From assembly GCA_965217895.1 (NCBI GenBank), contig CBDCJV010000002.1, positions 1,888,001 through 1,952,000 on the forward strand: a stretch of 64,000 nucleotides of DNA. The letters are read 5' to 3'. How positions within the stretch are numbered: the first letter of the stretch is position 1; every line of letters starts with the position of its first letter. This document shows, in pieces, positions 45,213 to 51,278 of the stretch. The notes beneath the pieces were generated by a model, which made no database searches, was not told where the DNA came from, and worked only from the letters and a program-made list of their open reading frames with translations. The stretch comes from Waterburya sp. GTDB lineage: Bacteria; Cyanobacteriota; Cyanobacteriia; Cyanobacteriales; Xenococcaceae. Made by a program: the position numbers and the translations under genes.

Positions 45213-45672
45213 GATTTAAGTAATTTCATTTAAATAACCTGAGTTCGGGATAAGAAAAAGGACAGGTAGTAAGCTGAAAATAACAACTTTCTTCAGTAAA
45301 CCTGCCCTATGTTTAGTTTAGATGCTTTATTTTGTGATGTAGACGATTTTTGTCTTGTTTTTGAACCTGAATGGCAAAAGAAGTTGCTAAGTCATGGCGG
45401 AATAAAAAGACGCAGAGCGAAAAACCTCTGTTTGAGTGAAATAATGACGATTTTAATTGCGTTTCATCAAAATCACTATCGCAATTTTAAACACTTTTAT
45501 CTTGACTATGTAAAACAGCATTGGCATTTGGCTTTTCCAGGACTTCCTAGCTATCAAAGATTTGTGGAATGGACTCCTTCAACTTTAATTCCGTTGTGTG
45601 TCTACCTCAAACGTTGTTTTGGAAACTGTACAGGGATTGGTTTTGTTGATGCTACTAGTCTCAAAGTTTGTC

Positions 45673-45720
45673 AACACGGTGGTTGTATAAGCTGGGGAAA
45701 CCCCAGCATACCCCACCGTC
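45673..45720. repeat. 48-nt in-frame mini-insertion (family B arms, shared GCTGGGGAAACCCCAGC hairpin)
   Basis: Interrupts the VC|HNRRI motif; nested stems ACGGTGG/CCACCGT, GTAT/ATAC, GCTGGGG/CCCCAGC; GTCA at both junctions. Confidence 0.85.
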
Positions 45721-45795
45721 ACAATCGCCGAATTAAACGCCACAAAGTTTTTGATGGTTTAGCTCAAAGAGGTAAAACTTCGGTTGATTGGTTTT

Positions 45796-45843
45796 GCGGT
45801 GCGACCCCGCTGGGGTTTCCCCAGCATGGGAACGCGCACCAAG
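45796..45843. repeat. 48-nt in-frame mini-insertion (family A, copy 3)
   Basis: Removal restores TGG TTT TAT GGT TTT AAG (WFYGFK). Reverse complement is CTT-GGTGCGCGTTCCC-ATGC-TGGGGAAACCCCA-GCGGGGTCGCACC-GC. Confidence 0.88.
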
Positions 45844-46175
45844 ATGGTTTTAAGCTCCACTTAGTAGTCAACGAGATCGGTCAACTGTTAAATGCTCAAC
45901 TTACTCCTGGAAACTTTGATGATCGTCGTCCTATTCCTGACTTGCTTCAAGGTCTTTTTGGTAAATTTTTTGCAGACAGAGGCTATGTCTCCCAAAAGCT
46001 TGCTAATCAATTGCTCGAAGAGTTTGGGATTCAGTTTTTTGCTAAACCCAGACGTAATATGAAGAATAAATTAATGCGACTTCATGACAAACTTCTATCC
46101 CGCCACCGATCAATTATTGAGACAATTAATGACCAACTCAAAAATATTTCTCAAATCGAACATTCTCGCCATCGA

Positions 46176-46196
46176 TTGCGAAGCTAGCCGAAGGCA
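46176..46196. repeat. 21-nt insertion into a CGATCG (HIP1-core) site
   Basis: CGA|TTGCGAAGCTAGCCGAAGGCA|TCGC; removal restores CAT CGA TCG CCA (HRSP). Confidence 0.85.
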
Positions 46197-46392
46197 TCGC
46201 CAGTAAGTTTTTGCGTTAATGTTCTTTGTGGATTAATCGCTTATTGTCATCAACCTAAAAAGCCTAGTCTCCGCCTTGATTGGCTTTTGCCTCAATCTGC
46301 TTAACCCGAACTCAGGTTAACTAATTTTTATTAAGTTGGCAACTATATTTTAAAAATAAGAAAAAATACTTAGTTGCAAATGTAAAAATACT

Positions 46393-46421
46393 GAGATTAA
46401 CTTTAAACATCAGTTAATCTC
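46393..46421. promoter_or_regulatory. Perfect 10-bp palindrome with 9-nt spacer upstream of the HDO gene (candidate operator)
   Basis: GAGATTAACT-ttaaacatc-AGTTAATCTC. Confidence 0.4.
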
Positions 46422-46636
46422 TTGTTTAAATTTAGGTAGGCTTTCGGATGTCTATTAGCTGACAAACATCTAATAATTAGAACAGAAAGCTACAAAATAA
46501 AAAGTAAATCAAACATATGAAATATTATTTTTTGATTGACTTTAAACAAACCAAAAGCTAGGAGTTGCTAAAAAGCTTTTTTAGAACAATTTCGTAATTA
46601 GCTAAGGTTCAGTTTGTTTTGTAACTAAAAAAGAAA

Positions 46637-47590
46637 ATGCGGTCAAATATATTCAGTCTGCAAACTAGTAGATTTCACCGCAAATGTTTAATGAATTGTT
46701 TTGTGATTCTTATGGCTGAAAATGCTAACACAGGTGCTAGTGATCGAGCAAGAAGTAGCCAAGATCAATTAGATCTTGATAACACAGAATGGGTGCAAAT
46801 TGCCCCAGATAAAGTAGTAGTAGCTACTGCTGAGCGTGCTTGGTTGTATCAATCTCGTTCTGCTGACGATCGCTTTGCTCAACCAATGGAAGGTGCTGGT
46901 AGTTTTGCTACCACTCGGAAGTTGTTAGATACGGCGATCGCTGCTGCTAAATGTGCAGTCAAGTCTGAACTCAGACCACCTGCGTTGACCTCTATTCGCT
47001 GGATTTGGCGATTGGCTGGTGCTTACCACATGACTTTTTCTGTCCCAGATCTAATGAGAAATGTTGCTAAAAGCTTTGCTGTTAATAGCCGTTTTGCATT
47101 AGAAGAGTGGGCTTTAGAAAAAGCTGAAGAGGAAACAGGTCACGATCGCCTAGCTTTGCTCGATATTCAGTCCTTGGGATACGATGCTGAGGCTGTGGTT
47201 GAGACTCTTGTTCCTCCTGCTGCTGTTGCTTTGATGGATTATTTTACTCGTAGTGCCAAAGATAGTAATCCAATCGATTGTGTGGGCTACACCTATACAA
47301 TGGAACGTTTATCTTTGGGCATTGAGGAAGAATATATCCAAAAGGTTGAAGCTTTGCTTCCGACTCAGACCAATGCTACTCGCTGTCTGCGCGTACATAG
47401 TTCCGTTGGTGCTGATGCTGGACACGCAGTAGAAAATGTTTCACTAGTAGCAGGGCTTACTGCCTCTGAACGAACTCGTGTGGCAAGAGCTTGTTATGAA
47501 ACTGCACTTATGTCTTTTAGTCCACCACCTGGAGGCTATATTTCTGATCTTGAGCTTCAGCAAACTCTAGAGTCATTTAAGCTTAATTGA
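46637..47590 (+). CDS. Putative heme-oxygenase-like diiron oxidase (HDO / iron-containing redox enzyme)
   Basis: Helical core with a candidate ligand set E164-E165-E166-x2-H169, E223 (YTME) and H254-x5-D260-x2-H263, resembling the E/H/E/H/D/H set of CADD/UndA/BesC-type HDOs. The start may be ATG 46691 or 46712. Confidence 0.65.
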   Translation: MRSNIFSLQTSRFHRKCLMNCFVILMAENANTGASDRARSSQDQLDLDNTEWVQIAPDKVVVATAERAWLYQSRSADDRFAQPMEGAGSFATTRKLLDTAIAAAKCAVKSELRPPALTSIRWIWRLAGAYHMTFSVPDLMRNVAKSFAVNSRFALEEWALEKAEEETGHDRLALLDIQSLGYDAEAVVETLVPPAAVALMDYFTRSAKDSNPIDCVGYTYTMERLSLGIEEEYIQKVEALLPTQTNATRCLRVHSSVGADAGHAVENVSLVAGLTASERTRVARACYETALMSFSPPPGGYISDLELQQTLESFKLN

Positions 47591-47691
47591 TTCTATTAAG
47601 TTGATTTAAGCCTAGTCACAAAATAATTCATCAACCAAGAACAAACAGTTTTTGGTACAAATTAACAATTAAAAATTCACGGAGAATAAAT

Positions 47692-47838
47692 ATGAATACT
47701 GCAACAGCTACTCAAATCAAACACGTTGAAAATACTCTAGAAATTTTGAACCAATTTGGCATCGAAATCGATTTGGACAATATTTTGGCTAAAGAGTTTG
47801 AAGCAGGATTATCTAGTGATATTAGCAACTGCATTTAA
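47692..47838 (+). CDS. Unannotated 48-aa peptide, candidate RiPP precursor
   Basis: GGAGAA RBS at 47681-47686; MNTATATQIKHVENTLEILNQFGIEIDLDNILAKEFEAGLSSDISNCI; lies between the HDO gene and a terminator. Confidence 0.7.
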   Translation: MNTATATQIKHVENTLEILNQFGIEIDLDNILAKEFEAGLSSDISNCI

Positions 47839-47926
47839 AATTTAAGGCTTAACGTCAATTAGAAAAAAGCACTTTTTTCGCTTTTCATTTATTTATAGAT
47901 AACGCCTGTTGAAGGCTAAAAATACT

Positions 47927-47990
47927 ACCTCACTGAGCTTAATTTTTACTTGAAAATAAACTCAGTGAGGTGTTTCTTTTGTTTTTTTTA
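47927..47990 (+). terminator. Intrinsic terminator closing the HDO-peptide unit (possibly bidirectional)
   Basis: ACCTCACTGAG...CTCAGTGAGGT perfect 11-bp stem followed by GTTTCTTTTGTTTTTTT. Confidence 0.75.
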
Positions 47991-47998
47991 AATTTTCT

Positions 47999-49636
47999 TT
48001 AGTTTAATTGTTCTGATAAAGTAGATTTACTCGCGATCGCTGTTGCTTCATCCAGATGTTTAACTAGTGTTTTTTGGGGTAATGCGCCTTGGATATGCTG
48101 CCAGGGAAGAATCTGCTTACCTGAATCCCAATGGTCATGAACATAGTAATCTAAGGTGGGTATTTGCCCTCGCAGTTGTTTAAAGGCTCGTTTGTAGCTG
48201 CCTACAGAGTCACCATATTCTCTGGTTAATTGCAGCAGCTTTCCTAAACGGCGATCACCACGAGAAATTAAAGCCTGAATTACTGACCAATTATAGCTTT
48301 CAGGGCGAAAATCAATACCTTGTTGGCGCAGATTTTTCTCTAGATATTTAAGTCTTTTCTTGGCTTCGGGATTGACTCCAAACCATTGAAAGGGAGTGTG
48401 AGATTTTGGTACAAAGGTGCTGCATCCTAAAGTCAGGCGTAAACTAGGCACAGCTTTTTTAATTGCCGACATCATGGACACAGTTGCTTCTACATCAGCC
48501 ATATCTTCCCCTGGAATGCCAACCATTCCGTAAAGCTTAAGGGCTTTTAATCCTCCTGCTTTGGCATTGATAGCTGCTTGAATAATTTCGTCGTTAGTGA
48601 GTTTTTTATTGACGATCTGTCTAACTTTGGCTGAACCACTTTCTACAGCAATGGTAATTGAACGGGTATTACGGTTTGCTAAGGTAGCAGCCAGCTTTTC
48701 TGTGACGGTGTTAGTACGCACTGAAGCAATACTAAGACGCACATCTTCATATTGAGGCTGAGATAGATAATCCAAGATGGCTGCAAATTCTGGATGCTGG
48801 GTTACAGATGCGCCTAATAAACCCAAACGCTTAGTAACTTTCAAACCTTTTTCAATAGCAGGAATTAAAGAGTCATTTAAAGATGCAGTACGAAATGGCA
48901 AAGTCAAATAGCTAGCTAAACAGAAGCGACACATTTCAGGACAACTGCGGACAACCTCCACCATATAAATATTCTCCCAGGCTGCCTTTTCCGTAACCAC
49001 GGTAGAAGCCGAGAGAGTATTGCCACGATAGGTTTGTTTTTGAACTGCTGCGGGAATATCAGGATCGACAGGTGCGATCGCCTTGATTTCGCCATCAGGA
49101 GCATGATAAGTTACTTCGTATAGACTGGGAATATAAATACCTGGGACTTGGGCTAGATGCTTAAGCTTAGTCAAGCGGTCTGCGTTTCTTACCTGTTGAT
49201 AAGCATCAATAAAGCTATCGAGTAAATTCTCTCCATCTCCTAGCAAAATTACATCAAAGAAATCAGCAAAAGGTTCAGGGTTAGCGGTTAAAACCGTTCC
49301 TCCTCCGAATACTAGAGGATGATCGTTTTGTCTATCGATGCTCTCAAGAGGAATATCTAAAGACTCCAATAGATTAAAAATATTAATATAATCTAGTTCC
49401 CAGGATACCGAAAAACCCAGTAATTCGGGATTTCTGGGTAGAGTTTCGCTTAGGTCAGTAAATAGGCGACTAACATCAACATCAGAACGCATTGCCAAAG
49501 TCGCCCAAACGATTTGAAAACCCAAACTAGTAATACCAATGGTGTATTCATTAGGAAAAGCAAAAATAGCGGGAATGGCGTTGGTCTTTGGAGTTGCAGG
49601 AGTAAATAACAGACGTTCTTGTTGAAATACAGTCAC
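47999..49636 (-). CDS. B12-binding-domain radical SAM protein (conserved cyanobacterial type)
   Basis: FPNEYTIGITSLG, GGTVLTANPEP, CPEMCRFC cluster motif, FVPKSHTPFQW. Confidence 0.88.
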   Translation of the reverse strand: MTVFQQERLLFTPATPKTNAIPAIFAFPNEYTIGITSLGFQIVWATLAMRSDVDVSRLFTDLSETLPRNPELLGFSVSWELDYINIFNLLESLDIPLESIDRQNDHPLVFGGGTVLTANPEPFADFFDVILLGDGENLLDSFIDAYQQVRNADRLTKLKHLAQVPGIYIPSLYEVTYHAPDGEIKAIAPVDPDIPAAVQKQTYRGNTLSASTVVTEKAAWENIYMVEVVRSCPEMCRFCLASYLTLPFRTASLNDSLIPAIEKGLKVTKRLGLLGASVTQHPEFAAILDYLSQPQYEDVRLSIASVRTNTVTEKLAATLANRNTRSITIAVESGSAKVRQIVNKKLTNDEIIQAAINAKAGGLKALKLYGMVGIPGEDMADVEATVSMMSAIKKAVPSLRLTLGCSTFVPKSHTPFQWFGVNPEAKKRLKYLEKNLRQQGIDFRPESYNWSVIQALISRGDRRLGKLLQLTREYGDSVGSYKRAFKQLRGQIPTLDYYVHDHWDSGKQILPWQHIQGALPQKTLVKHLDEATAIASKSTLSEQLN

Positions 49637-49823
49637 AGATTATTAATTGGTTGGCTTTGATTGTAGCTTGGATATGCAGCTATTTTAATTATCTATCCCT
49701 TTGGAGTTAGGTTGCAGAAATTCTCAATATTTTTAAAAATTACAATCATCTCCTATAGCCATTTAAGCTGATGTGTATTTGAACTGCGCTTTATTTAAAT
49801 CTGACAATGGTATTTGCAACAAT

Positions 49824-51278
49824 ATGAATCCAAAGAAAGCTAAAAGTCAACATTATAATTCCAGCCAAAAATGGTTGGCAATGCTAGGTATGTGTTTGGG
49901 AACTTTAATGTTTGTCCTCGATACTAGCGCAGTTAATATTGCTGTGCCGACTTTAATCGAGGCTTTTGATACTAGTTTTGCGATCGCCCAATTAGCCGTT
50001 GTCAGTTACCTGTTAGCTATTACATCCTTACTTTTAGGTGCAGCACGTTTGGGAGATATTTGGGGCAGAAAAAAACTGTACCTATTAGGATTGGCTATTT
50101 TTACTATCGGTTCGCTGCTATGCGGTCTTGCACCTTCTATTTACTTCTTAATTGGCTTCCGAATATTGCAGGGGTTAGGGGCGGTATTCATTTCAGCCTT
50201 GGGTCCAGCTATTGTTACCGAAATTTTTCCCAGTTCAGAAAGAGGTAAAGCATTAGGCATTTTTAGTACTGTTGTTTCTGTTGGTATAGCATCAGGACCA
50301 ACAATTGGTGGTTTTTTGATCGATATATCAAGCTGGCGCGCTATCTTCTTTATTAATTTGCCAGTCGGTCTTTTAGCAGGATACGTTATCGCCCGTTTTG
50401 TGACTAAATCGACAACTACTAATAAAGGTCAGAAAAGTTTCGACGTGACTGGGGCAGTCGTTTTTATGCTGACTTTAGTTGCTTTTACCGTAGGGATGAA
50501 TCAAGGGCAAGATCGAGGTTGGAATAGTCAGATTGTGTTTATTTGTGGCGCGATCGCCCTTTTAGGCGCGATCGGTTTTATCGTTATTGAAACCCGTATC
50601 GCTCAACCAATATTTGACTTAGGGTTACTTCGCAATTCTCAACTAGCGTTGGGACTATCGACTAAGCTGCTTGTATTTATCGTGCTTTCGGGCGCAGTAT
50701 TTATTTTGCCTTTCTTCATTGAGAGATCTATGGGCTATTCTACCCAAAAAACAGGCTTGCTGATGGCAGCATCCCCCTTTTTAGGAGGCGTTTTTTCTCC
50801 CATATCTGGAATTTTAGCGGATCGCTTTGGTTCAAGGATCATTAGTCTGTGTGGATTATGTCTGATAGTAATTGGTTGTTATTGTCTGAGTACCTTCGAT
50901 GCCCAATTAACAGATTGGGGATACGTTGCCCGCATTGCCCCCTTCGGCATTGGGATAGGAATATTTCAATCTCCTAATAACAGCACCATTCTGGGAGAAG
51001 CACCCCAAGACAAAATAGGAGTCGTTTCAGGACTGCTAGCACTGTCTCGTACTGTCGGGCAAACGATAGGAATTCCGATTATGGCTAGTTTTTTAGTTGC
51101 CTTTACGGGTGGTATAGCTTCTGGTCAGACTACAGCAATAATGTCGGCATCTAGATCGGCTTTGCTAGGTGGCATCAAGGCAACTTTTTTAATAGCTACC
51201 GTAATCATGAGCTTGAGCGTAGTTTTAGCGGTAGTCGAGCTTCGACAGTATTCTTTTAAAAAGGCAAGTAGAAAGTAG
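49824..51278 (+). CDS. MFS drug:H+ antiporter (DHA2/EmrB-QacA type)
   Basis: About 14 TMs; LDTSAVNIAVP, GDIWGRKK, GPTIGG, WRAIFFINLPVG; likely start ATG 49824. Confidence 0.9.
   Translation: MNPKKAKSQHYNSSQKWLAMLGMCLGTLMFVLDTSAVNIAVPTLIEAFDTSFAIAQLAVVSYLLAITSLLLGAARLGDIWGRKKLYLLGLAIFTIGSLLCGLAPSIYFLIGFRILQGLGAVFISALGPAIVTEIFPSSERGKALGIFSTVVSVGIASGPTIGGFLIDISSWRAIFFINLPVGLLAGYVIARFVTKSTTTNKGQKSFDVTGAVVFMLTLVAFTVGMNQGQDRGWNSQIVFICGAIALLGAIGFIVIETRIAQPIFDLGLLRNSQLALGLSTKLLVFIVLSGAVFILPFFIERSMGYSTQKTGLLMAASPFLGGVFSPISGILADRFGSRIISLCGLCLIVIGCYCLSTFDAQLTDWGYVARIAPFGIGIGIFQSPNNSTILGEAPQDKIGVVSGLLALSRTVGQTIGIPIMASFLVAFTGGIASGQTTAIMSASRSALLGGIKATFLIATVIMSLSVVLAVVELRQYSFKKASRK

Follow-up and report, generated by a model that had tools for sequence, protein, structure and literature searches.

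What a heme-oxygenase-like diiron oxidase (HDO) does when its gene is closely followed by one for a very short peptide is the question raised by a 64,000-nucleotide stretch of Waterburya sp. DNA (assembly GCA_965217895.1, contig CBDCJV010000002.1, positions 1,888,001 to 1,952,000 of the forward strand), referred to here in its full length as the window. A preliminary description, made from the letters alone, took the two genes for a minimal unit of the RiPP type (peptides synthesized ribosomally, then modified post-translationally), an HDO-fold enzyme with its precursor-like peptide. This idea is strongly supported by protein fold, gene linkage, tandem peptide copies, natural fusions and leader exchange, and the enzyme–peptide pair is likely a RiPP system. 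It represents a real, widespread and apparently undescribed HDO–precursor system and probably a new RiPP class, although the residue that was first thought to be modified had to be abandoned.

The enzyme gene lies on the forward strand at 46712..47590 and encodes 292 residues from its probable start, ATG 46712, with the frame open back to 46637. A protein of 317 residues had been proposed; the open reading frame (ORF) of 46637-47590 and its diiron motifs (E141-x2-H144-D145, E198 and H229-x5-D235-x2-H238, numbered from ATG 46712) are present, but the longer start is disfavoured because a 1-nt insertion just 5' of ATG 46712 breaks the longer frame in two of the three nearest relatives. The AlphaFold2 model of the enzyme (predicted local distance difference test, pLDDT, 95; predicted template modelling score 0.91) has the anticipated heme-oxygenase-like fold, in which a short N-terminal three-stranded sheet (residues 26-46) precedes the helical bundle. 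It aligns best with PDB 3DDE (VIA Z 19.7, root-mean-square deviation 3.2 over 220 residues), followed by HrmI (17.3), CADD (16.6) and UndA (15.1), and Foldseek agrees (E = 1e-4 to 3DDE and 3e-4 to UndA). The sequence passes the cut-off of Pfam PF14518 (31.0 bits against 28.9) and stays far below that of the CADD family TIGR04305 (18.2 bits against 200), so it is not a CADD. The predicted site of three histidines and three carboxylates (3H/3C) comprises E141, H144, E198, H229, D235 and H238, with D145 in addition, and its first ligand motif aligns with those of 3DDE and the mangotoxin acetylenase MboA. Predicted ligands are intact in 125 of the 136 distinct family enzymes from the collected loci, and each of the six is at least 95% conserved among these 125. 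By modelled fold and ligands, the enzyme is an HDO. It shares fold (Z 15.1-19.7) and ligand set with UndA, CADD, HrmI and Sden_3740 (the 3DDE protein, of unknown function), whereas its identity to UndA, CADD, HrmI and other 3H/3C HDOs is only 13-19% and such enzymes act on fatty acids, on free amino acids or on a Tyr of their own, according to the available text of a review (PMC13108848). Clustering at 90% leaves 753 proteins in the family, and at 50% identity there are 290 clusters; matches in the ESM Atlas are hypothetical or PF14518 clusters only.

The second gene, at 47692..47838 on the forward strand, had been missed by the ORF track according to the preliminary description. It encodes 48 residues and has, as described earlier, a GGAG ribosome-binding site (47681..47684, forward strand, by sequence) 7 nt 5' of its ATG. 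Purine-rich, mostly GGAG-type ribosome-binding sites are kept 5' of its homologues, 78 of which were found in databases, some of them listed in public annotations as hypothetical proteins. Compared with the window's copy, the homologues have a median dN/dS of 0.17 (16 of 22 pairs, saturated ones excluded), which indicates purifying selection, and differences at codon positions 1, 2 and 3 number 192, 137 and 364, the third position changing most. By these sequence signatures, the ORF is a protein-coding gene. The peptide consists of an acidic leader (L-D-x-I-L-x-x-E-F-x-x-G-L), a hinge and the six-residue tail D-I-S-N-C-I. It matches no Pfam or NCBIfam family, the NHLP domain included, and its ESM Atlas matches are unnamed clusters. 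Across the family, one leader is found with different tails and similar tails are found under different leaders, an architecture of leader and core; no cleavage site was identified. The variable tail that had been expected behind the leader did not materialize, the tail being kept in length and pattern instead.

In 26 of 27 genome loci, as had been anticipated, the enzyme gene is followed at a distance of no more than a few hundred nucleotides by a same-strand homologue of the peptide gene, and the 27th locus has only 71 nt of downstream sequence. Among 401 genomes of the order, 27 carry the enzyme and 26 match the peptide profile, all of them enzyme-bearing, whereas none of the 374 enzyme-free genomes does; since the profile (A5) was built partly from the genomes then scanned, the positives are partly circular and the enzyme-free negatives carry the weight, and related genomes are not independent of one another. 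In the 27th enzyme-bearing genome, the precursor is longer but starts from a leader of similar kind. Tandem peptide copies are common, with up to four in locus L083, in which two convergent units carry different tail classes, and seven, whole or partial, in L024. Moreover, enzyme and peptide are fused in frame in L031 (1363-2409), and a second fusion (P0136/P0272) has the other tail class; such natural fusions suggest possible self-modification in cis. No longer protein carrying the peptide was found among 8000 candidates, a weak negative given that fusions are known. In the window's own genome, neither enzyme paralogues nor further peptide copies were detected.

That the peptide serves as a substrate is argued most strongly by the recognized RiPP leader that can occupy its position beside the same enzyme family. 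A metagenome scan, limited to the best 80 of 163 confirmed stretches, provided 79 loci: 34 with the cyanobacterial-type peptide, 32 with an NHLP-like ORF, seven with less than 300 nt downstream and six matching neither profile. Among the NHLP-like ORFs, 31 are on the strand of the enzyme, 28 of them complete and ending in DPGF and three cut by contig ends; the remaining one is on the opposite strand and has another core. Precursors beside the high-GC enzyme homologues belong to or resemble the NHLP/proteusin family (TIGR03793), with two of the four ORFs tested (L104 and L086) above its cut-off and two (L144 and L094) below, and are accompanied by flavin halogenases and proteases, whereas the window's own peptide lacks the NHLP domain. 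The enzymes paired with NHLP precursors in high-GC bacteria are 38-52% identical to that of the window (29 sequences). On the FastTree phylogeny of the enzymes, the PNG-tail clade has a support of 1.0 and the deep division that sets NHLP-paired enzymes apart from cyanobacterial ones only 0.17 and 0.57; because of this poor support, no direction of transfer is claimed. The six loci outside both profiles include two with signal-peptide-like precursors, one with a divergent leader-like ORF and one in which a third leader type with a similar D-x-x-x-G-F tail precedes a halogenase-like gene. Longer precursors of 96-149 residues (L038:7980-8429, L079:5137-5583, L080:6614-6910, L113:5900-6190 and L106) have an acidic leader like that of the window, but their tails differ, being of Cys-Cys-containing or Leu-Ala-Arg-Gly types, and the two tested have no match in NCBIfam. 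The four examined for hydropathy start with a hydrophobic stretch (maximal 11-residue hydropathy 2.2-2.5, compared with 0.9 for the window's peptide), which is read as a signal peptide. Taken with the tight linkage, which extends across phyla, these designs make it probable that the peptide is the substrate of the enzyme.

Which residue would be modified can be approached from the tails. The tail set contains 156 distinct complete tails, three of 159 having been dropped (one with a different core and two truncated copies), and because the tails are related, none of the following counts is independent. A hydrophobic residue ends 150 of the 156, compared with 36% of 3082 long ORFs of the window's own genome, and the last residue is never Gly, Pro, Asp, Glu, Lys or Arg, which together end 33% of the own-genome long ORFs. 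Within these limits it varies widely, with Leu, Ile, Phe, Val, Tyr, Trp, Ala, Met, His and Asn all found, so a reaction at this residue should ignore the side chain. Gly is never found at position -1 and is the commonest residue at -2 (46 tails); the other constant features are at -6 (Asp in 108, Gly in 32) and -3 (Asn in 123). In 62 of the 156 tails, the last residue (Phe, Tyr, Trp, His, Ala or Asn) is incapable of β,γ-desaturation.

Characterized relatives point to the C-terminus as well. The best characterized match of the family profile is MboA (E = 0.0023), with a similarity that is weak and covers about 80 residues. MboA (PDB 9YPI) takes a tripeptide, whose C-terminal carboxylate it binds at Fe1, and oxidizes that C-terminal residue from C-β (PMC13185094, available text). 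Its ligands are E86, H89, D90, E143, H172, D176 and H181 (PMC13185094), so both enzymes have an E-x2-H-D motif and equal spacings from Glu to Glu (57; E86-E143 and E141-E198) and from His to His (9; H172-H181 and H229-H238), but the Asp ligand is at H+4 in MboA and at H+6, a different place in the last helix, in the window enzyme. The substrate of MboA is a leaderless tripeptide made by an ATP-grasp enzyme, the redox partner MboB is required and the product is a β,γ-alkyne (PMC13185094), a chemistry impossible for the 62 last residues above. VarO, about 30% identical to MboA (PMC13185094), is a heme-oxygenase-like protein of the thiovarsolin RiPP cluster of Streptomyces varsoviensis; its deletion removes the C-β/C-γ double bond on the Arg ending the APR/GPR tripeptide product, and it may act after proteolysis (PMC6511847, available text). 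VarO and the window enzyme thus have a RiPP setting in common, a likeness by description, but VarO is accessory to YcaO/TfuA and serves a repetitive precursor, whereas the HDO is the sole enzyme here and faces one short C-terminal tail that never ends in Arg. No YcaO or TfuA is encoded among the window's flanking ORFs and there is a single tail, so the locus is not of the thiovarsolin type; among related loci, YcaO was found in L142 only. Furthermore, in all five substrate-bound 3H/3C structures covered by the available text of a review, the substrate ligates Fe1, and UndA decarboxylates its substrate to an alkene (PMC13108848), so that the carboxylate-bound oxidative decarboxylation of UndA is a model for the reaction proposed here. 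Oxidative decarboxylation of a peptide C-terminus is also known, in the text available, for another iron enzyme, LynB7 (PMC10127204), and in plant cyclopeptide alkaloids (10.64898/2026.01.20.700549).

From the tails and these precedents, the last residue is inferred to be the target, an assignment that we favour by a modest degree. By analogy, the locus would be a minimal RiPP unit: the acidic leader is predicted to be the part by which the diiron oxidase grips the peptide, whose C-terminal residue it would then oxidize, a scheme to which the same restrained confidence applies. Following MboA, UndA and VarO, the free C-terminal carboxylate would bind Fe1, this binding would trigger O2 activation, and hydrogen would then be abstracted from C-β of the last residue. 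The likeliest single outcome would be decarboxylative desaturation to a C-terminal enamide (-46.005 Da), a product that can be put forward only tentatively; alternatives at the same residue would be α,β-desaturation (-2.016 Da), β-hydroxylation (+15.995 Da) and C-α oxidation leaving an amide. Enamide formation, α,β-desaturation, hydroxylation or amidation are considered likelier than β,γ-desaturation because 62 of the 156 last residues cannot form a β,γ double bond. Asn-Gly, Pro-Gly and Ser-Asp favour turns. The Asn/Pro-Gly and Ser/Asn-Asp/Gly positions of the tails may be such turns, presenting the last residue to the iron site.

Several observations weigh against, or do nothing to support, oxidation of the peptide at its last residue, beyond the partial circularity and relatedness in the linkage counts, the weak and short match to MboA and the shifted Asp ligand. 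In the predicted fold of the natural fusion, the tail has a pLDDT of 32-55, too low to speak for or against docking; two loci with intact enzymes (L125 and L133), both among the six matching neither profile, show no precursor downstream. Among the genes next to the cyanobacterial pairs, to which the search for proteases was confined, neither a protease nor an exporter nor a redox partner is recurrent, so that nothing linked to the pairs accounts for release and export of the product. The hydrophobic C-terminus could be a binding anchor only, and the conserved Asp at -6 or Asn at -3 could be the target. An internal target of this kind, D at -6 or N at -3 here and D at -4 in DPGF precursors, undergoing β-hydroxylation, backbone cleavage or cross-linking to the last residue, has perhaps one chance in several of being right. 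Besides the frequency of both residues, it would explain a [S/T]-D-x-x-x-G-F pattern that occurs under three leaders (the window type, the DYDPGF type and that of L159), and the conserved Arg199, Arg224 and Arg254 could bind acidic residues. It sits poorly with the Gly that replaces D in 32 of 156 tails, both forms occurring behind one enzyme in L155, with the Pro, Ser or Ala that replaces N in some tails, with the signal-peptide-type precursors that have neither D nor N in their tails, and with the separate Asp/Asn β-hydroxylase encoded in some DPGF clusters.

Alternatively, the peptide might not be a substrate at all but a partner (small subunit, gate or inhibitor) that places its carboxylate in the Fe1 site of an enzyme whose substrate is a small molecule. 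The in-frame fusions known from two lineages, the fixed tail length and the cyanobacterial loci without a recurring protease or transporter would fit such a partner, and characterized HDOs act mostly on small molecules (PMC13108848, available text). Tandem amplification of the peptide genes would not be expected of it, nor would the leader's replacement by one of the NHLP type or by an extension resembling a signal peptide, or the halogenases, proteases or YcaO of the NHLP loci, and no recurring small-molecule pathway gene is found beside the cyanobacterial pairs; we regard this explanation as unlikely, somewhat more so than an internal target. Modification of a Cys near the C-terminus, as proposed in the preliminary description, agrees with the Cys at -2 in the window and its nearest relatives and with the Cys-Cys of two signal-peptide-type precursors. 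It is rejected by the tail statistics, no more than 18 of 156 tails having a Cys among their last six residues, with Gly, Ala and Pro commoner at -2 and Cys-free partners standing beside enzymes 70-77% identical, and is accordingly very improbable. That the small ORF lies by chance next to an HDO for small molecules is hardly credible: an orphan peptide copy (L178) with no enzyme within 1.5 kb speaks for it, the same genome having the enzyme elsewhere, but the co-occurrence counts refute it (the peptide is in 0 of 374 genomes without the enzyme and linked in 26 of 27 loci), and the natural fusions speak against it too. Oxidation of the peptide at its last residue is retained as the preferred explanation.

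Several features surround the two genes; the closest named relatives with this locus are Waterburya and Pleurocapsa. Downstream, a terminator-like stem-loop with a U-tract lies at 47926..47990 on the forward strand, a boundary shared with the convergent radical SAM gene. The 11-bp stem and U-rich tract reported earlier are present (arms 47927-47937 and 47961-47971), with a predicted RNA folding energy of -21.7 kcal/mol (z -4.9) that none of 200 shuffles equalled; a simple terminator scan missed the structure because its loop is 23 nt long. Directly 5' of the enzyme start, a 22-nt conserved element (46685..46706, forward strand) has 19-22 of 22 matches 5' of many homologues down to 60-75% protein identity and is absent in others; it is probably non-coding and regulatory, a candidate promoter or regulator site. 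The 'perfect palindrome' described at 46393..46421 turned out to be a spaced inverted repeat, with no strand assigned, of two 10-bp arms around a 9-nt spacer; it is matched by 30 of 1000 shuffles, none of the three nearest relatives has its right arm undegraded, and it is rejected as an operator and probably has no function. Around the enzyme ORF there is also a long-range inverted repeat of 22 nt (46685-46706 and 47616-47637), which two of these three relatives share; it was likewise discarded, being in most other relatives no better than shuffled controls. In metatranscriptomes, one contig (depth 2.1, 96% identity) covers 47640-47894, thus the peptide gene only, with nothing over the enzyme gene or the flanks, and DNA carry-over is possible.

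The two-gene unit is flanked by an IS982 copy (45237-46317; NF033520 above cut-off), inserted about 400 nt 5' of the enzyme start at a site where the nearest relatives have no insertion sequence, and by the convergent radical SAM gene (47999-49636, minus strand), which is of the B12-binding type and TIGR03960-like below the cut-off; a DHA2-family exporter gene of the major facilitator superfamily (MFS) follows at 49773-51278. None of the three is considered a member of the unit, with radical SAM in seven of 44 long clustered loci and MFS in fewer than three. Within the IS982 transposase ORF, there is an internal pair of 17-bp perfect inverted repeats (45691-45707 and 45809-45825), and this ORF may be interrupted by small palindromic insertions. 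Elsewhere, the unit also occurs on two Nostoc plasmids (L037 and L038), with an AraC regulator upstream and an NB-ARC gene downstream.

Family enzymes with incomplete ligands form a group of their own: 11 of the 136 lack the full set, and ten of these have no peptide directly 3', standing upstream of an intact copy (L019, L023, L067, L068, L073, L112 and L126) or alone (L066, L070 and L072). The enzyme tree shows that ligands, for example a His now Tyr or Gln, were lost on more than one occasion, and L070 and L072 precede a long ORF that resembles, by eye, a thiamine-diphosphate enzyme. Such paralogues could be pseudo-enzyme partners for leader binding or regulation.

In high-GC bacteria, the gene neighbourhoods are richer. 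Among 38 selected ORFs scanned in NHLP loci, the long loci encode flavin-dependent halogenases, recognizable by their GxGxxG and WxWxIP/FP motifs, together with proteases of the sedolisin or S8 type and an Asp/Asn β-hydroxylase. The combination of HDO, NHLP-DPGF precursor, one or two flavin halogenases and a sedolisin/S8 protease recurs in L094, L102, L104, L141, L144-L147, L151-L154, L156, L163 and L164, some of which add the Asp/Asn β-hydroxylase and an anthranilate-phosphoribosyltransferase-like gene; these look like undescribed halogenated RiPP clusters. A different arrangement is found in L142 (2612-10729), with a YcaO, an HDO, an opposite-strand NHLP precursor with a GG-type core, a C39-ABC exporter and an MFS transporter.

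The claim that no characterized system has this layout stands for the layout and the family, but not for the use of an HDO in RiPP biosynthesis, for which VarO is the precedent. A 2026 review counts, in the text available, about a dozen validated HDOs among more than 10,000 sequences, with VarO as the single RiPP case and its timing unclear (PMC13108848). Neither a stand-alone HDO–precursor pair, nor DPGF-ending NHLP precursors, nor a DPGF core with an HDO partner is described in the literature searched, which excluded most subscription papers and all supplements (that of the MboA paper has an HDO survey figure in which the family could appear), and term look-ups in PMC13725569 and PMC11002830 gave nothing relevant.

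As to the role of the product, a gene for an HTH-NB-ARC-WD40 protein is present, usually convergent, in 27 of 49 low-GC loci with at least 4.5 kb downstream, several of these loci being close kin. The window's locus lacks it, but two close homologues are encoded elsewhere in the genome (56% and 62% over 440 N-terminal residues). It is speculative, but conceivable, that the product is a signal read by this regulator; given that no protease or exporter recurs in the cyanobacterial loci, such a signal might plausibly be intracellular or slowly released, which is equally speculative. In its widest form, the proposal would be a widespread RiPP class of stand-alone HDOs, with this unit as its founding member, leader-dependent oxidative decarboxylation to an enamide on nearly any hydrophobic C-terminus, at least four precursor designs (with a short acidic leader, with an NHLP leader, bearing a signal peptide or fused in cis) and, in cyanobacteria, a product serving as the ligand of the co-inherited HTH-NB-ARC-WD40 regulator; as a whole, designs included, this is a long shot. 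More immediately, a probable substrate gene about 100 nt from the enzyme gene makes this a simple two-gene system for assigning function to the whole family, and if the last residue is oxidized regardless of its side chain, the enzyme could serve as a portable means of modifying peptides at their C-termini. It would also hint at new halogenated DPGF-derived products in uncultured bacteria, and the cyanobacterial NLR-like regulators would gain a candidate ligand.

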